The position numbers were made by a program, and so were the translations under genes. The notes below the pieces were generated by a model. That model did not search any database, had not been told where the DNA came from, and saw only the letters and a program-made list of their open reading frames with translations. DNA of 64,000 bases from Escherichia coli (GTDB taxonomy: Bacteria; Pseudomonadota; Gammaproteobacteria; Enterobacterales; Enterobacteriaceae), in assembly GCF_024298765.1 (NCBI RefSeq), contig NZ_CP101210.1; one strand, 5' to 3'. Positions 5,250 through 23,400 of this stretch are shown here, one piece after another (position 1 is the first letter of the stretch; every line of letters starts with the position of its first letter).

Positions 5250-5899
5250 ACTCCCTCCTTCTGCGGTACAAAGCGCACGCTGTCTCCCGGACGTAATAAG
5301 ATGGGTTCGTCACGCGCCGGATCAAACAGGCTGAGTGAGGTATGACCAATCAACTGCCAGCCACCCGGCGTTGCCAGCGGATAAACACCGGTCTGCGGCC
5401 CGCCGATCCCGACAGAACCTGCCGGAACGAGCAAGCGCGGTTCAGCGCGCCGTGGCGTGTGTAGTTGTTCCGGCAAACTCCCGAGATACGGGAAGCCCGG
5501 TTGAAAACCTAAAAACCAGACCACGTATTCCACGGAGGAGTGCAATTCAACAACCTGTTTTTCGCTCAACCCACAATGCGCCGCGACCACCGCCAAATCC
5601 GGTCCGCCTGCGCCACCGTAAACCACCGGAATTTCAATAAAACGAGACTCCGGCTCCAGCGCCTCACTCTCCTCCCACCAGCGTTGCAAACGCTCTATGG
5701 CATCCAGCGCCAGCGACTCAGGATTACGTAAAATCACCGTGATATTGTTCATGCCAGGAATGGCTTCAACCACATTCGGCATATCCACCAGACGCTGCGC
5801 CAGTCGCCAGATCCGTTTCTGGCTAGCCAGCGTCACCGGCGGTTCCAGCTCCAGCACTACCGCCGTTTCACCTATCAGATAACAACGCGCTCGTTGCAC
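5243..5899 (-). CDS. pxpB: 5-oxoprolinase subunit B
   Basis: 218 aa ORF, first gene of cluster. Confidence 0.8.
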
Positions 5900-5921
5900 T
5901 TTCGATCCCTCTGATTATTCG

Positions 5922-6665
5922 TTATGCAGGATTAGGAATATCAATAAAGGTCACATCAAGATCGGTATTTTCATTCAGCCACTCGCTCAATGCGCGAATA
6001 CCACCGCGTTCAGTGGCATGGTGACCCGCAGCATAAAAATGCAATCCCTGCTCGCGGGCTGAATGAATGGTCTGTTCAGAAACTTCGCCAGTAATAAAAG
6101 CATCCACGCCAAAACGCGCGGCGCTATCGATAAAACTTTGCCCGCCGCCCGTGCACCAGGCGACGCGCTGGACCACCTCAGGTCCGGTATCGCCACACCA
6201 TAACGGCTTACGTCCCAGACGCGCTTCAATCCAGGAGGCCAGTTCCAGTCCCGGCACAGGCATGGTCAGTTCGCCCCACGGCACCAACGGCTCAATTTCG
6301 CCCATGACCGTGATCCCCAGTAACGCCGCCAGCTGTGCGTTATTGCCCAGCTCAGGATGTGCGTCAAGCGGCAAATGCCAGCCATACAGGTTGATATCAT
6401 TCGCCAGCAACGTTTTTAAACGGTTACGCTTCATGCCGCGAATGACCGGGGATTCGCCTTTCCAGAAGTAGCCATGATGCACAATGACCGCATCCGCGCC
6501 CAGACGCACCGCTTCATCGAGCAAAGCCTGGCTGGCAGTGACACCGGTAACAATTTTTTGCACCGTCTCTTTGCCTTCCACCTGCAAACCATTCGGCGCG
6601 TAATCACTAATCGCCGCGCTGTTCAGTTTTTCGTTAATCAGTTGTTCCAGTTCGGTGTTTTTCAT
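5922..6665 (-). CDS. ybgI: Nif3-family metal-binding protein
   Basis: 247 aa, recognised by sequence. Confidence 0.8.
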   Translation of the reverse strand: MKNTELEQLINEKLNSAAISDYAPNGLQVEGKETVQKIVTGVTASQALLDEAVRLGADAVIVHHGYFWKGESPVIRGMKRNRLKTLLANDINLYGWHLPLDAHPELGNNAQLAALLGITVMGEIEPLVPWGELTMPVPGLELASWIEARLGRKPLWCGDTGPEVVQRVAWCTGGGQSFIDSAARFGVDAFITGEVSEQTIHSAREQGLHFYAAGHHATERGGIRALSEWLNENTDLDVTFIDIPNPA

Positions 6666-6752
6666 CTTCGCGCCTTCCGTATTCTGATAGCTACACCGTT
6701 AACATAGCGTTACCTCGCCTGTTCGTCGATAGCCAATCTTTTGACATATTAA

Positions 6753-8417
<1,665 letters not shown>

Positions 8418-8459: not shown

Positions 8460-9878
8460 TCAGGCTCCTTTCCTCGCTTCTTCGTACGCTGCCAGCGTTC
8501 GCAGCCTTGCCTCTTTGTGATCAACTATCGGTTGCGGATAATCCAGCGTCATACCTGCTTTCTGCGCCCACTTCCACGGCTCATGCACCACTTTCCCTGG
8601 CACATCGCGCAGTTCCGGTAGCCACTGGCGGATAAACTCGCCTTCGCGGTCAAATTTCTCGCCCTGGGTTGTCGGGTTAAAAATACGAAAATACGGCGCT
8701 GCATCGGTTCCGGTTGAAGCGGCCCACTGCCAGCCACCGTTATTAGCTGCCAAATCACCATCAATCAGCTGCGACATGAAATATCGCTCGCCTTCGCGCC
8801 AGTCGATCAACAAATCTTTCACCAGAAAACTGGCTGTAATCATCCGTAGCCTGTTATGCATCCAGCCAGTGCTGTTAAGCTGACGCATGGCAGCATCGAC
8901 AATCGGGTATCCCGTTTTGCCTTCCTGCCAGGCCTGTAAATGTGCGGGATTGCTCTGCCACTGCACACGATCCGTCCAGGCAATAAACGGACAATGTTTA
9001 CACAACGAGGGGTAATACGTCATCAGATGACGGTAGAACTCGCGCCAGATCAGCTCACTAAGCCAGACACTACCGGCCCCACCGTCCAGCGCCTGCGGCT
9101 GTTCCGCCAACAAGCGATGCAAACACTGGCGAGGCGATAACCCGCCCGTTGCCAGGCTGGCGGACAAACGACTGGTGCCTTCCACTGCCGGAAAATCTCG
9201 TTGTTGCTCATATTCTCCGGCACCGTTCTGGCAAAACTGGCGTAATTGCGCAATCGCAGCTTTTTCTTCCACCGGGAAATGCGCAGTATCGAAAGACTGA
9301 CGAGGATAATTCAGCGTAATGGATGGCGCGGGCTTTATCGATCCGCTACTACGAACTTTTGGTGCAGCGACGCACTCCGGCATCCCTTCCCGCAGCCGTT
9401 TCAGCCAGGCATTTTGAAAAGGCGTAAAGACTTTGTACATCTCATGATTGTCAGTCATCACCGCGCCAGGCGGCAGGATCACGCTGTCATCAAATCCTTC
9501 ACACACCACGTTACGCAGCGTTCTCTCAACCTGCACATCCCGCGCCCGCTCATTCACCTCATACTGATAGTTATAAAAAAGATGAGTAACGCTGTTTTCC
9601 GCGCACACCTGTTTAACTATTTCGACGCTGGCGGCAAAGTCATCCACTTCACGGAACAATAAAGGAATGCCTTTTTCCGCCAGCGCGATTTGTAGCCCGT
9701 TCAGTTGAGCATTGATAAGTTCAGCCTGACGCGGCGACATGTTATGCGCCGCCCACTGGCGTGGTGTAGCGATATACAACGCCAGCACGCTTGCAGACGA
9801 ATTGCGGCAGGCGGCAGCCAGCGCGAGATTATCGTGCTGACGTAAATCCTGGCGAAACCAGACCAGATGGGTAGTCAT
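8460..9878 (-). CDS. phr: deoxyribodipyrimidine photolyase
   Basis: 472 aa, MTTHLVWFRQDLR N-terminus; overlaps ybgA start. Confidence 0.9.
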   Translation of the reverse strand: MTTHLVWFRQDLRQHDNLALAAACRNSSASVLALYIATPRQWAAHNMSPRQAELINAQLNGLQIALAEKGIPLLFREVDDFAASVEIVKQVCAENSVTHLFYNYQYEVNERARDVQVERTLRNVVCEGFDDSVILPPGAVMTDNHEMYKVFTPFQNAWLKRLREGMPECVAAPKVRSSGSIKPAPSITLNYPRQSFDTAHFPVEEKAAIAQLRQFCQNGAGEYEQQRDFPAVEGTSRLSASLATGGLSPRQCLHRLLAEQPQALDGGAGSVWLSELIWREFYRHLMTYYPSLCKHCPFIAWTDRVQWQSNPAHLQAWQEGKTGYPIVDAAMRQLNSTGWMHNRLRMITASFLVKDLLIDWREGERYFMSQLIDGDLAANNGGWQWAASTGTDAAPYFRIFNPTTQGEKFDREGEFIRQWLPELRDVPGKVVHEPWKWAQKAGMTLDYPQPIVDHKEARLRTLAAYEEARKGA

Positions 9879-10384
9879 AAAACTCCTGAATGGCGCAAGT
9901 TAATCACACACGGCCAAAGTTCGAAATAACGCTGCACTGAAAGCCAGGCGTCAGGATAAAGCGCCATATAGTGTTTGATACGCATCAGCGGCGCAAGAAG
10001 TGGTTGCTCGCCACGGCGATAACTGTCGATAAGCGCCGCCAGCTGCTGGCGTTCTGTGGAATCAATATGTGGGCGAAAATATCCCTGAACGTGCATCAAA
10101 ACGTTAGTATGATCACGCCGGTTGGCAGGGTGAGAAAGCAAAACAATCACGCGTTGGCGGTACTGGTTGTAATAGTCATCCAGACTTTGCCACCGGTGAA
10201 TATCAGCCACAAACGGGCCAAGTTTGCGGTATTCCGGCTGGGAATGCGCCAGAAAGACGAGTTTATAACGGCTGTGATAATCGAGAAGCGCCCCGCGCGT
10301 TAAGCCATGTTCTTTCAGTCGATATAGCTCATAAATCGCGAAGATGCGGATTAGGGTGCTTTCATCAAATCGTTGCTGATTCAT
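9875..10384 (-). CDS. ybgA: DUF1722-family protein
   Basis: 169 aa ORF upstream of and overlapping phr. Confidence 0.8.
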   Translation of the reverse strand: MNQQRFDESTLIRIFAIYELYRLKEHGLTRGALLDYHSRYKLVFLAHSQPEYRKLGPFVADIHRWQSLDDYYNQYRQRVIVLLSHPANRRDHTNVLMHVQGYFRPHIDSTERQQLAALIDSYRRGEQPLLAPLMRIKHYMALYPDAWLSVQRYFELWPCVINLRHSGVL

Positions 10385-11439: not shown

Positions 11440-11532
11440 AGAGGTACAGGAACTGCGGGAGGAACTTTATCAGGTTAAACAGGGGTTAAGGGGATGCGGA
11501 ACGGGATGTTTAGTGTGCTGAACGAAAGCTAA
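11440..11532 (+). pseudogene. 3' fragment of SymE-family gene, truncated by the ISAs1 copy
   Basis: ...QELREELYQVKQGLRGCGTGCLVC-type tail homologous to the end of 14396..14725; begins exactly at the IS end. Confidence 0.6.
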
Positions 11533-11534
11533 AT

Positions 11535-11572
11535 AATAAAAAAGCCGGGAAGATCTTATCTTTCCCGGCCAT
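11535..11572. terminator. hairpin + T-run between convergent genes
   Basis: aagccgggaagatcttatctttcccggc inverted repeat. Confidence 0.5.
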
Positions 11573-11587
11573 CTTGCCATACATTAA

Positions 11588-12022
11588 TTATTTATGAATA
11601 TAATATAACTGAACATCATATTCATTATCACTTAAAACTATTAGTCGATCGGGAAATGTAAATGCTAATGAAAGATCATATGTTTCATTTATCGAAAACA
11701 AACTCAATATGAAATTTGAAAAATTTTCGACATGAAGAGATATGCAAACATCTCCATTATAGAATATATTGCAAAGAATATCTTTTTTCACATTCAGTGT
11801 ACTTTCAACATCTCTCGCTAGATCATTAATATTTAAAGGTAAATTGAAAACTCTCCTTTCAATAATATTATCGGTTTTATTTATTGCCATTAGCATTTCT
11901 CGATGCCACATGAAGTCATTCTTACGTAAGAATGATACATCAAAGGAAGTGACACCATTTAATTTAGAAGCATAATCTTTTGCTCTAATTAAATTTAATT
12001 TATCTTCAAGGCTAATTTTCAT
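11588..12022 (-). CDS. putative immunity protein of orphan Rhs C-terminal toxin
   Basis: 144 aa ORF starting 11 nt inside the 3' end of the toxin stub; position-based call only. Confidence 0.5.
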   Translation of the reverse strand: MKISLEDKLNLIRAKDYASKLNGVTSFDVSFLRKNDFMWHREMLMAINKTDNIIERRVFNLPLNINDLARDVESTLNVKKDILCNIFYNGDVCISLHVENFSNFILSLFSINETYDLSLAFTFPDRLIVLSDNEYDVQLYYIHK

Positions 12023-12470
12023 AATATATATGATGATCCTTAGTTACAGGGTCATTGATCTTCTGATATCTATCACTTTTGAAATCGTATGTTCTAGGAT
12101 CAGCGCCCGGTTTAGGTTGTCCTGCATGTGCGTGAGGGCCAGGTGCCCTAGGATCTGCCGTGTGCTCGACTACAACTTTCTTACGTCCGTAGGCATCTGT
12201 ATATTCATAATATCGCCCATGAGACCCTAAATCTTCCGAATATTTATAATTTGTTTGTCCCCTTCTTCTAGGATCATTTCCAACGGTCCATTGCCTATTA
12301 GGTTGCTGTGAACGAGGTATGCCCGCAAGATCTTTTGCTTTATTTAGTGCCTGACGACGGTTTCTTAATTCACCACATTTAAGACCAAGCGGATCTATCC
12401 AGCTTACTGGATTAGGCGCGTAAGCATATAAGTTTAGCCCCCCCGCCAGCCCTATCGGGTCGGGTTACGT
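12012..12470 (-). pseudogene. orphan rhs C-terminal stub: last ~25 core codons (..PIGLAGGLNLYAYAPNPVSWIDPLGL) plus ~125-aa toxin tip, no start codon
   Basis: Hand translation of minus strand; in-frame stop immediately upstream of the core remnant; absent from ORF track because it lacks a start. Confidence 0.6.
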
Positions 12471-12634
12471 AAATGTTCCACAGTCCGAGTCGTAGTACCT
12501 CAGAAGGTTGCAGTGCAATCCCGCCTTGCGACATCAAGGCATAGTTTCAGAAAAAGTAAGGAGCAATCACCATACCCCAATTCACTGGGTGCTAAATAAT
12601 ATCTGGTAACATCCCTTACTTCAATTCTATTTCA

Positions 12635-13030
12635 TTACAACTTCTTTACTTTCCATATTCTTTGCGCAGCTAAAAAAGATACTCCTTTGAACCAAGACGC
12701 ACATTCAATAACTTGTTCCCATGAATATATTTTATGTGAGCTAAATTTTATCGATTCATCTTGGTTCATTATCTCAATAAAATAATATCCTTTATTATAA
12801 TCTCTTTTTTCTATTCTATCTTCAGCTCTTGCCGAACGTATAGAAATAACACAATCATCTAATAAACAAAATCTTTTCTTTATAATCGCATCATCTTGGT
12901 TCCATGGATTTGTACTTGCCATTTGTTCTGATTGTTTCAGCTCATTCACTACTGTATACCAAATAGCTTCGGTATCACTTGCCTTTGCATTCTCTCTATC
13001 AGACTCGGATCTAAATATAATTTTGTCCAT
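12635..13030 (-). CDS. putative orphan immunity protein (cognate toxin replaced by ISAs1)
   Basis: 131 aa ORF; about 20 codons of an upstream ORF end in TAA overlapping its ATG (TAAAATG) just before the IS end. Confidence 0.4.
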   Translation of the reverse strand: MDKIIFRSESDRENAKASDTEAIWYTVVNELKQSEQMASTNPWNQDDAIIKKRFCLLDDCVISIRSARAEDRIEKRDYNKGYYFIEIMNQDESIKFSSHKIYSWEQVIECASWFKGVSFLAAQRIWKVKKL

Positions 13031-13086
13031 TTTAATAATCCAAATGTAAATTACTTAAAATACCCTCTGCCTCATTCCAGGCATTG

Positions 13087-14388
13087 ACATGGGAACCCAG
13101 GGAAAGATTACGAAAGCCCGCTCCCAGCAAGGACTGACGCCAGATAGTTTCTGTCCATGGCTGCTTTTCGCATCTTACGTCTTAACCCTGCCTTGAATAC
13201 CTTATCATTCGTCAAAATATTAATAGCGATGTGCCGTATCCCTGAAAATAATTCTGCTGCATTTCCTCTTCTTATTTTGCAGTCGTCTTCATTCATTACC
13301 ACGTCCAGACGCCAGTGCAGCTTATTCTCCACGTGCCAGTGGTTTCGGATTGCTGTGGCGAACTTCTCTGCGGTTAAATCAGCAGAACTGATATAATATC
13401 TGACCGTCATTTCTGGCTCTTTCTTTTGTTCTGCTATTATTGACCGAAAGGAGACTGCCACGCATAATTTCTTCAGACCTTTCCATTCAAACGTGAAATC
13501 AATAAGTTCATCAGGGACATCGCAAACAATATGAAGACGGATTTCTTCTCTGCCGTGACTTTTTTCACTAATTGCGTAACTGTCATGCTCTGGATTATTT
13601 AATTCTTTCAGTGGGAATTTTTCCTCAAAGGCTTTATTAAGCCGCCCCTGATTTCCTTTTACAGCGAATAAATAATCACCGCCCTGTTTTTGTATCTTCT
13701 CTGCGATATCTTTCTGGCACCCCATCGCATCAGTTGTGATAATTTTTCCTTTAATATCCAACATGTTAAGAAGTTCAGGGATAGCTGTGATCTCATTGGA
13801 TTTCTCATCCGTCCTGATCTGTCCGATGACCAGACTGTGCATTGTTGAGAACGCACTAATGACATGAATCGCTCCCCTGCGGCGACTCTTGTCATAAGAA
13901 TGCCGGAGCGTTTTTCCATCAATTGCAATAACGTCTTTATCATCTGAAGAATGGCAGTCACGCATCCAGTTAATAAAGCACTCGTGAAATTTTGCAGGAC
14001 TGATACAGGATACAACTCTGGCAATGGTATCGTGAACAGGAATACCATTTTCAAAATCACCATATTGCTTCAAAAAATCGAGATGTGTTTCCCCAAAATC
14101 CTCTATATCTTCCCAGCCTTCTGCACAAGAAATAACGGCACAAATAGTCAACAGTAGAATATCCGACAATTTATGTTCCACTTTCCAGGCTTGTCTGTAA
14201 TCGGGGATAATAGAAATATGTTCCATCAATTTTTTAAGTTCCATTTTGTTCTCCTTAATTATGTAAGGAGTATTTGACCATGTATACGCAATAAAAAACA
14301 GCTTCAGGTAATGAGGAATATCTCAATTTTTAAACATAAAATGCGAATTATTTAGTACAAAAAAGCAGCGTTACGTGATCTTTCCCTG
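13087..14388 (-). mobile_element. ISAs1-family insertion sequence (H-repeat), apparently intact
   Basis: About 1.3 kb; imperfect terminal inverted repeats; single 378-aa transposase ORF. Confidence 0.8.
13108..14244 (-). CDS. ISAs1-family transposase (H-repeat-associated protein)
   Basis: 378 aa, [32 protein letters not shown]..., matches Rhs-associated H-rpt proteins. Confidence 0.9.
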
Positions 14389-14395
14389 GTTAATC

Positions 14396-14725
14396 ATGGC
14401 TGAACACGATATTACGCCAGAAATCACCATTTCCAAAACACAGCGCCGCTATAAAGTCGGCTATGTCAGAGCCCGCCACATAAACAGCAAAACCTACATG
14501 ACCACGTACTACTCACGACACCCCAGCCTGAACCTCAAGGGCGACTGGCTGAAAGAGGCCGGATTTGATACCGGGCGGGGTGTCACGGTGAAGATTTCGG
14601 AGGGGTGCCTGACCATCATCGCTGACAGTGACGAGGTGCAGGAACTGCGGGAGGAACTTTATCAGGTTAAACAGGTGGTTAAGGGGATGCGGAGCGGGAT
14701 GTTTAGTGTGCTGAACGATAATTAA
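14396..14725 (+). CDS. SymE-family (type I toxin-like, AbrB-fold) protein
   Basis: 109 aa; LKGDWLKEAGFDTGRGVTVKISEGCLTIIA resembles the SymE core [30 protein letters not shown] (from memory); start trimmed from ORF 14375. Confidence 0.7.
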   Translation: MAEHDITPEITISKTQRRYKVGYVRARHINSKTYMTTYYSRHPSLNLKGDWLKEAGFDTGRGVTVKISEGCLTIIADSDEVQELREELYQVKQVVKGMRSGMFSVLNDN

Positions 14726-14776: not shown

Positions 14777-15145
14777 TTATTCAGGAAATTTTCTATTTTT
14801 ATATGATGACCATAAGTGAGTGATCGACCAAGAGTTTTCCTTTCCGAGTACAAAACTTTTGGAGATTATCTCAATATCATCAGATATACGCGAAGATATT
14901 TCAGAATTATTAATCACCCTGAATGAGTATTTAAATGCCTTTTCTCGCAAGGAATCAATAAACTCAATATCATCATCCTGAAAACTTTCCTTATCTAATG
15001 AATTAAACTCACTCATCCAGCAATCATCAAACTCCGGTTCATCTCTTGAGTCTAATGCACTATCAACATTTAATGATTTAAGAAAATCAAAAAATGACGG
15101 GGTGGATAAACAGTTATCAATTTCAATTAGCTTATTATTAATCAT
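14777..15145 (-). CDS. putative immunity protein of orphan Rhs toxin
   Basis: Acidic ~122 aa protein; ATG overlaps toxin stop in TGATG arrangement. Confidence 0.55.
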   Translation of the reverse strand: MINNKLIEIDNCLSTPSFFDFLKSLNVDSALDSRDEPEFDDCWMSEFNSLDKESFQDDDIEFIDSLREKAFKYSFRVINNSEISSRISDDIEIISKSFVLGKENSWSITHLWSSYKNRKFPE

Positions 15146-15790
15146 CACATTAACCCTTGTCCTTTGAGCCAAACCTCTATTAAATCAACAGCCTTGGATG
15201 GTGTCACATTAGTACCTAGCGTATAAGTTCCATTTGGAGATTTAACATCAACTCTGATGTCATCTAATTTTGAATACGCTTTTCTGTAAGCATCAAATAA
15301 CTCTTTATCCGAACCAAGGAAATCACCTTGTCTTGGACCTATCACATCTCGTTCCGCATGATGTAAACGCCAGTGATTATGTTCTGGATTTTCTCCTCTA
15401 GGGAATAATGTTGGGCGAGTTTTATCAGATCGGGAAACTTCAAACGGACGTCCTTTAGATTTACGAACCGCAGGAACATGATGTCCAGATTCACTCACGC
15501 CCATACACTTCTTCGTTAATCCAAGGGGATCGATCCAGCTTAACGGATTCGGTGCATAAGCATACAGGTTTAACCCGCCTCTTAGCCCTATCGGGTCCGT
15601 TACCATGAACCGCCCGACATCCGGATCATAGTACCTGTGCAGATTGTAATGCAGCCCCGTTTCCCTGTCGAGGTACTGTCCCTGGTAGCGCAGGTTCTGC
15701 TCCACCCCGCCGTGGTCCTTCTCCTGTATCGTGTTACCCCAGACCTGATACCCCGTCTCCCACACGATTTTCCCGTCACTGTCCGTCATC
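15145..15790 (-). pseudogene. orphan rhs C-terminal fragment: ~90 core codons + DPLGL + ~120-aa toxin tip with GHH signature
   Basis: ORF 15145..15825; core part near-identical to main rhs (MTDSDGKIVWETGYQVWGN...DPIGLRGGLNLYAYAPNPLSWIDPLGL); 5' end cut by ISAs1. Confidence 0.65.
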
Positions 15791-15792
15791 TC

Positions 15793-17084
15793 CAGGGCAA
15801 GATTACGAAAGCCCGCACCCCGCAAGGACTGACGCCAGATAGTTTCTGTCCATGGCTGCTTTTCGCATCTTACGTCTTAACCCTGCCTTGAATACCTTAT
15901 CATTCGTCAAAATATTAATAGCGATGTGCCGTATCCCTGAAAATAATTCTGCTGCATTTCCTCTTCTTATTTTGCAGTCGTCTTCATTCATTACCACGTC
16001 CAGACGCCAGTGCAGCTTATTCTCCACGTGCCAGTGATTTCGGATCGCTGTGGCGAACTTTTCTGCGGTTAAATCAGCAGAACTGATATAATATCTGACC
16101 GTCATTTCTGGCTCTTTCTTTTGTTCTGCTATTATGGACCGAAAGGAGACTGCCACGCATAATTTCTTCAGTCCTTTCCATTCAAACGTGAAATCAATAA
16201 GTTCATCAGGGACATCACAAACAATATGAAGACGGGTTTCTTCTCTGCCGTGACTCTTTTCACTAATTGAGTAACTGTCGTGCTCTGGATTATTTAATTC
16301 TTTCAGCGGAAATTTTTCCTCAAAGGCTTTATTAAGCCGCCACCTGATTTCCTTTTACAGCGAATAAATAATCACCTCCCTGTTTTTGTATCTTCTCTGC
16401 AATATCTTTCTGGCAACTCATCGCATCAGTTGTGATGATTTTTCCTTTAATATCCAGCATGTTAAGAAGTTCAGGGATAGCTGTAATTTCATTGGATTTC
16501 TCATCCGTCCTGATCTGTCCGATGACCAGACTGTGCATTGTTGAGAACGCACTAATGACATGAATCGCTCCCCTGCGGCGACTCTTGTCATAAGAATGCC
16601 GGAGCGTTTTTCCATCAATTGCAATAACGTCTTTATCATCTGAAGAATGGCAGTCACGCATCCAGTTAATAAAGCACTCGTGAAATTTTGCAGGACTGAT
16701 ACAGGATACAACTCTGGCAATGGTATCGTGAACAGGAATACCATTTTCAAAATCACCATATTGCTTCAAAAAATCGAGATGTGTTTCCCCAAAATCCTCT
16801 ATATCTTCCCAGCCTTCTGCACCAGAAATAACGGCACAAATAGTCAACAGTAGAATATCCGACAATTTATGTTCCACTTTCCAGGCTTGTCTGTAATCGG
16901 GGACAATAGAAATATGTTCCATCAATTTTTTAAGTTCCATTTTGTTCTCCTTAATTATGTAAGGAGTATTTGATCATGTATAAGCAATAAAAAACAGCTT
17001 TAGGTAATGAGGAATATCTCAAATCTTAAACATAAAATGCCAATTATTTAGTACAAAAAAGTAGCGTTACGTGATCTTTCCCTA
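15793..17084 (-). mobile_element. ISAs1-family copy, transposase frameshifted
   Basis: Same ends as the copy at 13087..14388; ORF split into 16332..16940 and 15803..16156; 1-bp difference (gccgccacctgattt vs gccgcccctgattt). Confidence 0.75.
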
Positions 17085-19735: not shown

Positions 19736-19764
19736 GTGCTGCCAGCGCAGCATCTGCCCAACCG

Positions 19765-19978
19765 CAGCGACACGCCGGTGATCAAAATCAGCGCCAAATG
19801 GCTGAGAGAAGCGGGATTTGAGATCGGCACGGGCGTTACCGTGAAGATCTCGGAAGGCTGCCTGATCCTGCTTGCAGATAACAACGGAGTACAGGAACTG
19901 CGCAGGGAACTTTATCAGGTTAAACAGTCTGTTAAGGGGATGCGGAACGGGATGTTTAGTATGCTGAACGATAATTAA
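19765..19978 (+). pseudogene. SymE-family gene, C-terminal fragment
   Basis: ...IKISAKWLREAGFEIGTGVTVKISEGCLILLADNNGVQELRRELYQVKQSVKGMRNGMFSMLNDN homologous to 14396..14725; N-terminus lost at the orphan rhs junction. Confidence 0.6.
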
Positions 19979-20441: not shown

Positions 20442-23400
20442 TTAGTTGTCGTGTGATGAATTGAATGGGAACGATGTACGTACAGAACCGTCGGGTTTTA
20501 CAACAACCCTTGCCATATCTGGAACTACCTCTGTCCCATCAGGTAAATAACCTCGACTTTTTATATTTGTAGGCAATGGCACATCATGCACACCTGGTCC
20601 TTTTTTGGCAACAGAAGCAATAAAATCAGCAGCAGAATTATCATCGAGATATTGTCCAACTTGATGACCTTTATTTCTGGCACGATCAATTAACTGATTT
20701 GGTTTCATTTTCTGTCCGTGTTCAGAAAAGGTGTGACCGTATGTAGGCTTACTTTTTGGATTTCCCCATTTGAAGTCAGATTTAGGACACAATCCAAGTG
20801 GGTCGATCCATGACAGTGGATTAGGTGCATACTGATATAAGTTTAACCCGCCTCTCAGCCCTATCGGGTCCGTTACCATGAACCGCCCGACATCCGGATC
20901 ATAGTACCTGTGCAGATTGTAATGCAGTCCCGTTTCCCTGTCGAGGTACTGTCCCTGGTAGCGCAGGTTCTGCGCCACCCCGCCGTGGTCCTTCTCCTGT
21001 ATCGTGTTACCCCAGACCTGATACCCCGTCTCCCACACGATTTTCCCGTCACTGTCCGTCATCTCTTCCGGCGCGCCGTTCACATCCGTGTGAAAATACA
21101 GTATCCGGTTCGGGCCCTCTTTGCCCGCCTTATCCACCCGCGCCAGCGGTTCATAACTCCCCGGGTCCCTGTAGATGTACAGGCTGTCTGTTCCCTCCGG
21201 CCTGCTCTCCTGCGCCAGCCGCATTCCGTCCCATAAAAATGCCGTCCGGTTGTACGGTTTACCGTCAGGGCTGATGTGCTGTTTTTCCGTCCGCCTCCCC
21301 AGCGCATCGTACACATACCGGTACGTTCCCCGCGCTGTCGTCACTTCCACCATCCGGTGTTCCGCATCATAACGGTAACTCTGCGTGCCGCTCCGCCCCT
21401 CCTTTTCCACCGCACGGCCAAATTCGTCGTAACGGTAGTGCACACCACGGTAAGACATCAGCCGGTTGAACGGCACCACGCTGTTTTCTGCCGTGGCCCT
21501 TTCCCCCGCGCGCCGCCCCAGCAGGTTTCCCGCCGCGTCGTACTGCCAGCTCGCCAGATACCCCTCATCCTCCGAGCGGCACGCCGTGATGCGCCCCGTG
21601 GGGTCGTAGAAGTAATCCGTTTCCCCCCGCCGGCTGTGCCGCGTCTTCAGCAGTTCATCCTCGCCACTGTAGCTGTACTGCCGGTCCGTGAACGTCTCCG
21701 GTACCACCCCGCGCATCCCGCTGTATGTCTCCCTGCGCTTCAGCCGCCCGGCGGGGTCGTAAAGCTGCCGCGTGCTCAGTCGCCCCTGACTTCTGAGCAC
21801 TTCACGGTGCAGGGCGTCACGAGTGAACTCGCTGATGACCTCCCGGTCCAGATTTATCTGCTGGAGATGGCCGCTGCCGTAGTACAGATGACGCTGCGTT
21901 CTGCCGTCCGGAAAGGTGGTGGCTGTCCGGTTGCTGAGTTCATCGTACTGATGGGTCAGGACGCCCTGCGCCGTCTCCTCAGTCAGCATCCGCCCCAGTC
22001 TGTCGTAACTGAAACGGATAATCTCCGGTGCGTCTGTTTCCCCGGCATCCGACCGTCGGCGGCGGATTTCCAGTAACTGGTCTGCCGCATCATGGACGTA
22101 TTCCGTACGGCTATCGGCTGTCTCCTTTGCCGTGAGCCGGCCCGCCGCATCACGTGCCAGCCGGTGGCGGATTTCACCGCCCCGGTCCCCGGTGAACACC
22201 ACTTCCGTGACCGCGTTCAGCGCGTTGTAGCGGTACGTCTGGCGGCAGCCGTCCGGATTTATCTGCTCCGCCAGACGGTCCAGCACGTCATGGCGGAACC
22301 GGTAGCTTTCTCCGTTCTCGTTTGTCAGCGTGACCAGACGCCCGTAAGCATCGTACCCGAACGCCGTCCTGCGCCCCGTCGCGTCTGTCCGGCTGCGCAC
22401 CCGGCCCTGCCCGTCCCGCTGCCAGCGCGTTATCCTCCCCATCGGGCTGGTGTACTTCACCAGCCTGCCCGCCGCGTCCGACTGGTAATTCACCGTGCGG
22501 CCGTCCGCCAGTATCACCTCCGTCAGGTGGCCGCTGTCGTCATACCCGTAGCGCGTGCTGTGGCTCTGCGCGTCTGTCATCCGTATCAGCCGCGTGCGTT
22601 CGTCGTAGAACCAGGCCGTCTGCGAGCCGGAACAGTCCGTGTGCCGCATGAGCTGCCCGTCTTCGTTCCACTGAAGGTATTTATTCCCCCCGCGCGCATC
22701 GGTTATCTGCACCACCTGGCCGTGGCGGTCATACTGATACCGGGTGTTCTGCTGCAGCGGGTCGGTCACCGCAAGAAGATTGCCGCGTTCATCGTACTCA
22801 CAGCACCAGCTGTTCCCCGCCGCGTCCACCTCCGTTTCCGGCTGGTGCCACACCGGGTGCCACTGTGTCTGTGCCACCCGCCCCAGCGGGTCGTGCGTCT
22901 CCGTGATATGCCCCTGCCGGTCATACACATAGCGCCATTTGCCGCCCTGCGCATCGGTCATTCCCAGTAACAGCCGTTCTTCGTCGCTCCAGCGGAACGT
23001 CGTCACCTGCCCGGCTTCGTCCTGGTACGCCGTCACCTGATTCTGCGCGTCCCACTGATGATAACGCGTGCGCCCCAGCCCGTCCGTCACGCACAGCCTG
23101 CGTGACGCCAGGCTCCACGCCAGCCGGTACTGTTCACCGCTGTCCGTGTGGTGCCCCGTCACCCGCCACGCTGCGTCATCCGGGCCTTCATACCAGCTCC
23201 ACTGGTAATAATACCCTTCGCCGCCCGGCTGGCGGTGCAGGGTCATGCAGTGGTTTTCGTCGTAAGCAAACTCGCGCAGCAGGTGTCCCGTGCTGTCGTA
23301 CACGCCGTTCAGGTCGCCGGCCTCGTCATAGCGGTAACGACGCAGCAGTAAAGGAGCCGTCTCAGGGAAATGCTGATAAATCTGTGTCACCCGCCGGGGA

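Follow-up and report, generated by a model that had tools for sequence, protein, structure and literature searches.

An Rhs immunity gene probably orphaned by ISEc1-associated loss of its toxin in Escherichia coli

The 131-aa ORF at 12635..13030 on the minus strand of the window, the 64,000-nt stretch of Escherichia coli chromosome analyzed here, is identified by its sequence associations as the cognate immunity gene (RhsI-type) of one Rhs C-terminal (CT) toxin domain. Only the tail of that toxin survives, wedged between the immunity gene and a complete ISEc1 element, and we hold with considerable confidence that the locus represents a cognate Rhs immunity gene orphaned by the ISEc1-associated loss of a probable nuclease toxin. 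The assignment draws on the ORF list, the PGAP annotation of an identical locus, and the toxin that neighbors the gene in other loci. The ORF opens with ATG and is complete in the ORF list, bearing out a preliminary description, made from the sequence alone, that had called the immunity gene intact.

Array architecture and the immunity gene family

The window covers an rhsC-type Rhs locus between ybfA and ybgA/phrB, annotated by PGAP on a 100%-identical genome, that of strain D10 (identical locus L007). The locus is composed of one full-length rhs gene followed by an orphan toxin/immunity array with interspersed ISEc1 (H-rpt) copies. The main rhs gene (20442..25100), encoding a 1552-aa Rhs protein, lies upstream, with ybfA and the kdp genes farther out; ybgA (9875..10384) and phrB (8460..9878) lie just downstream of the array. 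Along the minus strand, the PGAP order in D10 runs from the main rhs gene through a 126-aa ORF, symE, an orphan Rhs, a 108-aa ORF, and IS remnants to a frameshifted ISEc1, and continues through a truncated Rhs-CT (15792..15145, minus strand), a 122-aa ORF, symE, and an intact ISEc1 to the 131-aa ORF. Beyond it, an orphan HNH/EndoVII toxin, a 144-aa ORF, and an ISAs1 fragment (ybfD) precede ybgA.

The next orphan module downstream (12012..12540, minus strand), defined from sequence and annotation, is composed of an Rhs core-end fragment (...GLAGGLNLYAYAPNPVSW) running into a CT of the HNH/EndoVII toxin fold. PGAP places the toxin CDS of this module at 12455..12012 on the minus strand, and blastn reveals homology limits at 12442 and 12409. 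The ORF list and annotation give its putative immunity gene, of 144 aa, at 11588..12022 on the minus strand, with no family match for the product in Pfam and NCBIfam scans.

The 131-aa protein is identical to WP_000357803.1. Family scans found no Pfam or NCBIfam family for it or for the neighboring small ORFs, and PDB sequences searched with a profile of the immunity family yielded nothing meaningful, with no immunity chain matched. The AF2 monomer, built on a 15-sequence alignment, is poor (pLDDT 51). The ORF is AT-rich, with a GC content of 0.32 compared with 0.51 for the window. Full-length homologues sharing 43-66% identity are present in several bacterial families, and the family comprises 18 clusters in a single-sequence search and 52 clusters in a profile search. 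Pairwise Nei-Gojobori omega (dN/dS) values within it are ~0.13-0.35, with dS mostly saturated. Full-length homologues in several families, together with these dN/dS values, indicate that the ORF is not a chance ORF.

Recurrent pairing with one toxin domain

Elsewhere, the gene is preceded, at a distance of 1-2 nt, by a toxin CT that is intact; such loci come from 51 other E. coli genomes, a Pantoea-like scaffold, Pseudomonas sp. RC10, and a Snodgrassella-like contig. The Rhs C-terminus of E. coli MEI003 and A34 reads ...GHPEFGAGSHVNAWNEAEGILSNLHLDY up to the stop codon, and the immunity gene starts 1 nt later; the CT following DPLGL measures 118 residues and ends in ...GWRDDILGHPEFGAGSHVNAWNEAEGILSNLHLDY before the same stop. 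The Pantoea-like scaffold (L004) encodes a 1538-aa PAAR-DUF6531-Rhs protein with a 79%-identical CT and a 66%-identical immunity homologue 1 nt later, while the VgrG-DcrB-PAAR-Rhs locus of Pseudomonas sp. RC10 (L017) carries a 67%-identical CT, also with an immunity homologue 1 nt later. The same pair makes up short orphan modules at two other loci, L016 and the Snodgrassella-like L010, and a further toxin/immunity pair lies at the contig edge of L012.

Six paired contexts share one CT family, with 61-93% identity to the E. coli CT, on carriers that differ (full-length PAAR-Rhs proteins and short orphans). The gene is located directly 3' of, and co-oriented with, the CT-encoding end in MEI003, A34, L004, L017, L016, and L010, and the gene family tracks this one CT family whatever the N-terminal carrier. 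Members of the immunity family also occur in arrays with the known immunity families SMI1_KNR4 and Imm8. Polymorphic-toxin immunity genes are defined in genomes by their position directly after the toxin CT (PMC3150448), and by this signature the recurrent pairing marks the 131-aa ORF as a cognate immunity gene. Both searches suggested in the preliminary description were productive: far from standing beside no toxin elsewhere, the gene is conserved next to one CT family in several taxa, and the remnant upstream of it corresponds to the last 21 codons of the paired Rhs toxin.

A different role for the ORF, as a regulator, a secretion accessory factor, or the antitoxin of a different system that lies near Rhs genes by chance, would be in keeping with a protein for which Pfam, NCBIfam, and PDB sequence searches gave no match and AF2 gave no confident structure. 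Such a role would leave unexplained the strict 1-2 nt position after one CT family across Enterobacteriaceae, Erwiniaceae-like, Pseudomonas, and Snodgrassella-like loci, the carrier-independent pairing, and the occurrence in arrays with SMI1_KNR4 and Imm8, and we regard it as very improbable.

Five of the seven toxin-positive E. coli loci inspected carry the CT as a minimal, start-less orphan behind an HTH-primase-XerC island at the rhsE/pptA locus. A34 alone among the seven carries it on a vgrG-linked main rhs gene, annotated in three pieces. Full-length, T6SS-linked carriers of the CT occur in the Pantoea-like and Pseudomonas loci. Since the CT is an unloaded orphan in five of these seven E. 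coli loci, the within-species threat looks rare.

The toxin remnant and the ISEc1 junction

The toxin remnant (13032..13097, minus strand), delimited by alignment to intact loci, translations, and invariant columns, comprises the last 21 codons (GSHVNAWNEAEGILSNLHLDY) and the TAA of the Rhs C-terminal toxin domain. The sense codons, at 13097..13035, align exactly with the tail of the toxin paired with the gene in MEI003/A34, and the TAA occupies 13034..13032. Of about 118 CT codons, these 21 are left, with no DPxGL region. The remnant keeps the family residues H101, N103, and H116 and is devoid of residues 1-98, including the WRDD and GH motifs; it therefore cannot be a functional toxin. A single spacer base, 13031, separates the toxin stop from the immunity start (TAA-A-ATG), and this 1-nt spacing is also present in the intact loci. 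A 32-codon hybrid ORF (13032..13130, minus strand; ORF list and translation) starts at a TTG inside the IS end, crosses over into the toxin tail, and terminates with a single base left before the immunity ATG. We infer that this ORF could matter only as a vehicle for translational coupling.

Upstream of the remnant lies a complete ISEc1 (H-rpt, ISAs1 family) of 1291 bp (13098..14388, minus strand), defined by Pfam, its inverted repeat, end alignments, and blastn to other copies. The transposase ORF (13108..14244, 378 aa), directly upstream of the remnant, is intact and contains DDE_Tnp_1_assoc (E 3e-32) and DDE_Tnp_1 (E 2e-30) domains in Pfam. The terminal inverted repeats read CAGGGAAAGATCACGTAACGCT... 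and ...AGCGGGCTTTCGTAATCTTTCCCTG, with the right end ...TAATCTTTCCCTG facing its inverted-repeat partner CAGGGAAAGATCA.... A length of ~1.3 kb, terminal inverted repeats, and one DDE_Tnp_1 transposase place the element in ISEc1, and blastn gives 96-97% identity to ISEc1 copies annotated ydcC. The ISAs1 element described beside the ORF is thus confirmed, as is the short upstream-gene remnant between them, for which ~20 codons had been claimed and 21 sense codons plus TAA are present. Two details of the earlier description required correction: the supposed TAA/ATG overlap is in fact a one-base separation, and the right end of the ISAs1 element, placed at 13087, lies 11 nt away at 13098 according to alignment with other ISEc1 copies and to homology with IS-free genomes, which begins at 13097.

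Comparison of the IS flanks (left, ...CATGATTAAC; right, GGTTCCCATG...) revealed no target-site duplication. On its left, the element borders the start region of a symE-family gene (14396..14725, plus strand, opposite to the element; PGAP of L007 and blastn mosaic), followed by another immunity gene, and not toxin sequence. An extended similarity of the two flanks (CATG..AAC) was considered as a target-site signature; a second IS copy is without it, and it was taken as chance. Hybrid flanks without a target-site duplication indicate deletion or recombination, and the absent duplication together with the symE left flank means that the toxin loss was not a simple insertion. The toxin was lost via an ISEc1-associated event, which could be an adjacent deletion mediated by the IS or a recombination of two ISEc1 copies in the same orientation. 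The earlier reading of an orphaned immunity gene is supported; what it described as replacement of the toxin by an IS is better termed an IS-associated deletion or recombination.

Distribution among complete E. coli genomes

When 12400..13110 was compared by megablast with 5,426 complete E. coli genomes, 111 proved to carry the 131-aa gene. The toxin 5' part is present in 51 genomes and the IS junction in 60, two counts whose sum equals that of the carriers. Among the matches listed, each of the 40 genomes with the toxin 5' part carries the gene in an IS-free context. The exact IS junction is present in 60 of the 5,426 genomes, 59 of which are 100% identical over the 211-nt junction query; the IS portion of this query was matched in 4,990 of the 5,426. 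Among the junction genomes are APEC O78:H4, APEC O2-211, and many isolates from poultry. The distribution points to one event, clonally inherited, as read from the aligned junctions. At the nucleotide level, the 131-aa ORF itself shows 100% identity to its toxin-paired counterpart in MEI003.

The census also bears on the possibility of a simple ISEc1 insertion, in which the toxin 5' part would lie across the element and be restorable by precise excision. An IS that adjoins toxin coding sequence and is itself complete would fit such an insertion. The left flank, however, leads into the symE start region and another immunity gene, no target-site duplication is present, and tblastn on the window returns the tail alone. 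In addition, the toxin 5' part matches at full length (at least 94% of the query) in all 51 genomes, whereas a reciprocal left-end junction would match partially, and these 51 and the 60 junction genomes sum to the 111 carriers. Simple insertion is rejected by flanks and census, and we assign it next to no probability.

Three observations indicate that the cognate toxin is absent from the same genome as the orphan gene. The window holds no further toxin copy beyond the 21-codon tail (tblastn), the 51 and 60 genomes of the census sum to the 111 carriers, and no second copy of the toxin tail is found in any of the 15 junction-lineage genomes listed (of 60), where the query, which included the tail, matched in a single place each.

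The lost toxin as a probable nuclease

The lost toxin is a 118-residue C-terminal domain of an unnamed polymorphic-toxin family, with no Pfam or NCBIfam match in scans of the CT. A phmmer search of 1.84 billion representatives yielded 94 clusters, in which the domain without exception occupies the C-terminus of proteins that reach 3,807 aa. Seven residues are invariant (A38, G76, G92, H93, H101, N103, and H116). The AF2 model of the CT is confident (pLDDT 96), and its nearest solved structure is the CdiA-CT 5T86, a member to which the lost toxin is similar in both fold and sequence profile. This nearest structure suggests a nuclease, and the lost toxin is probably one. Together with Salmonella Rhs2 (Ntox47), 5T86 is placed among the BECR-fold putative RNases in a 2026 preprint, according to which no mechanism has been published for 5T86 (bioRxiv 10.64898/2026.05.10.723254).

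No Pfam Ntox47 match at E <= 1 was obtained for the CT and 60 family members, and a Pfam scan of the 60 members gave sub-threshold matches only, to Tox-HNH-EHHH and DUF6894. Tox-HNH-EHHH appears below threshold in five of the 60 members, with a best E of 0.0045. The invariant G-H...H-x-N...H pattern fits an HNH-like signature, with the last His placed by the AF2 model in a strand, not a helix. HNH/EndoVII was considered as the toxin fold on account of this GH...HxN...H motif and is not clearly supported by the model topology or the best structural match. Given the weak Tox-HNH-EHHH matches in sequence, the lost toxin may instead be a DNase.

Retention and expression of toxin-less copies

Several other loci carry the immunity ORF beside a decayed toxin or none. 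Chromobacterium haemolyticum (L018) combines a full-length immunity ORF with a 5'-truncated, frameshifted toxin remnant of ~60 codons, in which WRDD has become WHDY. The Snodgrassella-like contig L006 retains a full-length immunity ORF (131 aa) next to a toxin decayed in situ by stops, and in L009 ~5 tail codons of the toxin precede a full-length ORF. No toxin is present in L011, where the immunity ORF reaches full length with the upstream GTG at 706 as its start (109 aa in the gene call), or in Salmonella SPI-6 (L005), where the ORF is truncated to 112 aa. Judged by these sequences, copies without a toxin, or with a truncated one, have arisen independently in Chromobacterium, Snodgrassella-like contigs, and Salmonella, and across the immunity family the pattern favors retention. 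Truncated E. coli homologues of 86-104 aa, together with the Salmonella copy, reveal that decay also happens.

In the stretch that separates the IS from the ATG, a promoter/terminator consensus scan of the minus strand found no convincing sigma-70 promoter, with counts not above those of shuffles, and a weak Shine-Dalgarno sequence (GGA at -12..-10) precedes the ATG. The 1-nt spacing of the native loci suggests that translation of the immunity ORF is coupled to that of the toxin ORF. Read-through from the transposase gene, which is co-oriented, or from farther upstream is a plausible source of transcription for the immunity gene.

The gene could instead be a neutral leftover, an immunity gene by descent that travels as a passenger of a recent IS-mediated deletion, is unexpressed or unselected, and would decay. 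The nucleotide identity with the toxin-paired MEI003 copy means that this lineage has had no time for decay, and the junction, identical in 59 of 60 genomes, speaks for one recent event, so that the intactness of the ORF here may be only a trace of a recent, clonally inherited event. The lack of a detected promoter, the truncated homologues in Salmonella and E. coli, and the rarity of the toxin on full-length Rhs proteins in E. coli point the same way. Against this stand L006, L009, L011, and L018, which independently keep a full-length immunity ORF with the toxin decayed or truncated, and a family omega well below 1. Orphan immunity genes can also be expressed and may confer broad immunity (PMC3150448), and such genes are reported as expressed or protective in other systems. 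On balance, we treat the neutral leftover as a real possibility that falls short of even chances. The opposite extreme seems unlikely to us, namely that the immunity-only state is adaptive, with the IS driving or coupling expression (read-through, hybrid ORF) and a "shield without sword" helping the poultry-rich lineage to resist Rhs attack by other gut Proteobacteria. On that reading, the short toxin tails that independent lineages keep ahead of the gene (21 codons in the window, ~60 in Chromobacterium, 5 in L009) might be retained as a translation-coupling signal.

Discussion

These observations support the following history. In an ancestor of a lineage with many poultry-associated strains, an ISEc1-associated event probably removed the toxin except for its last 21 codons and left the immunity gene intact and toxin-less. 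The gene would be transcribed by read-through from the transposase gene or from farther upstream, and its product, by analogy with other Rhs and CDI immunity proteins, would bind the toxin and occlude its active site. If expressed, the immunity protein would protect the cell from neighbors that deliver the toxin via a type VI secretion system (T6SS).

The case provides one concrete route from an Rhs array to an immunity-only store, in which an IS-associated deletion leaves the antidote behind. It also pairs two unannotated families for annotation: a 118-residue toxin domain (94 clusters) and its 131-residue immunity partner (52 clusters). Expression of the gene, if it occurs, would render ~1% of sequenced E. 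coli immune to a toxin that is not their own. The junction genomes belong mainly to one lineage with many poultry-associated strains, which bears on strain competition in the gut. Current concepts are unchanged by the window case.

Among the closest known systems are CdiA-CT/CdiI of E. coli A0 34/86 (PDB 5T86) and Salmonella Rhs2/SciX (Ntox47), with an identity of only 25-28%. In contrast to 5T86 and Rhs2, the lost toxin family possesses an extra LGH...FG insertion with an invariant His and has no Pfam Ntox47 match, and the window immunity protein is without sequence similarity to any PDB chain, which sets it apart from the immunity partners in these systems.

Like orphan rhs-CT/rhsI and cdiA-CT/cdiI modules (PMC3150448; PMC3967940), the window gene is located in an array downstream of a full-length rhs gene, as a small AT-rich immunity ORF directly after CT sequence. 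Classical orphan modules comprise a whole CT and a piece of Rhs core with DPxGL, reloadable onto the main gene by recombination, whereas the window locus keeps 21 CT codons and is immunity-only, with no toxin supply. The core end PxxxxDPxGL and complete CT that define an orphan module in Poole et al. 2011 are accordingly missing here; the idea that arrays stock immunity genes is stated in the same work (PMC3150448).

The element resembles the H-rpt/ISEc1 copies of E. coli Rhs loci (K-12 ybfD, ybfL, ydcC) in being an ISAs1-family element of 1291 bp that encodes a 378-aa DDE transposase and occupies the distal end of an Rhs array, an arrangement annotated in many genomes. Unlike the usual H-rpt/ISEc1, the window copy has its right end inside a toxin CT and no target-site duplication, pointing to secondary rearrangement.

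A further parallel is offered by T6SS orphan immunity genes and arrays, which are described in Vibrio cholerae (PMC5361080) and human gut Bacteroidales (PMC12247911, PMC10470768) as immunity genes without effector near remnants of displaced effectors; the role proposed for them is defense against non-kin attackers. In V. cholerae, effectors are displaced by incoming modules (PMC5361080), whereas here an ISEc1-associated deletion inside an Rhs array is involved. Toxin-less orphan immunity genes are thus already known from Rhs/CDI orphan modules and from Vibrio and Bacteroidales arrays, and the window case is a clear but ordinary one; what is new is limited to the pair of unannotated families, toxin and immunity, and to disarmament by way of an IS in a single E. 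coli lineage.

A polymorphic-toxin family represented by the lost domain

The lost Rhs toxin belongs to a family of polymorphic-toxin C-terminal domains (L001, an rhsE-type locus, 6710..7066; alignment A3), for which neither Pfam nor NCBIfam holds a model. The family comprises 94 clusters at 50% identity, is carried by both Rhs and much larger proteins, and is marked by the conserved motifs RRAARQAASEIAGDLGS, FRGGP, GWRDDxLGH, PHVNxW, and HLxY. The AF2 model of the toxin domain is very confident (pLDDT 96). This family is a candidate for formal definition and naming.

Organization of the surrounding modules

A second ISEc1 copy (15793..17083), whose transposase gene is split by a frameshift into ORFs 16332..16940 and 15803..16156, interrupts an Rhs core with its right end at ...EMTDSDGK. 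What remains of this Rhs past the junction (15145..15792) lacks its N-terminal part but has its whole C-terminal domain, and is accompanied by a putative 122-aa immunity gene (15145..14777). The toxin is spared at this junction, whereas it is lost beside the ISEc1 copy at 13098..14388.

The symE family, a type I toxin family, is represented in the window by two plus-strand genes (14396..14725 and 19736..19978) and a remnant (~11444..11575). One of the symE start codons is just 7 nt away from position 14388, where ISEc1 has its left end. In the array, a symE-family gene in convergent orientation follows almost all of the Rhs immunity genes, and the same convergent placement past immunity genes is seen at rhsE-type loci of other strains (L001, L002, and L008). 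symE looks like a component of the repeating orphan-module unit.

In the annotation of the identical strain D10, the main rhs gene is preceded by only a partial DcrB-related gene (25119..25322) and by no vgrG, so this full-length Rhs may have no spike and adaptor genes of its own linked to it.

Toxin-positive loci in E. coli and beyond

In most toxin-positive E. coli (L003, L008, L013, L014, and L015), toxin and immunity gene form a minimal orphan module at the rhsE/pptA locus, immediately following an inserted HTH-primase-XerC integrase island. At this locus, the core-end of the next orphan is interrupted by ISEc1 (ydcC) at a position equivalent to 12442 in the window.

Across its 46 C-terminal residues, the toxin of a contig-edge pair (L012, 1..543) shares 93% identity with its E. 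coli counterpart, but its adjoining immunity protein is only 66% identical to the window homologue (12635..13097 compared). Either the toxin tail seems to be changing far more slowly than the immunity protein, or recombination has assembled this module. On a Pantoea-like scaffold (L004), a second copy of the toxin domain, decayed by stops and a frameshift (9888..10055), lies ~1.5 kb downstream of an intact Rhs/immunity pair. Chromobacterium haemolyticum (L018) carries an independent toxin remnant (5818..5996), 5'-truncated and frameshifted with the conserved WRDD altered to WHDY, followed 3' by an intact immunity homologue and, just downstream, by an unrelated DDE transposase gene; it is a second case of a disarmed module with a mobile element as its neighbour.
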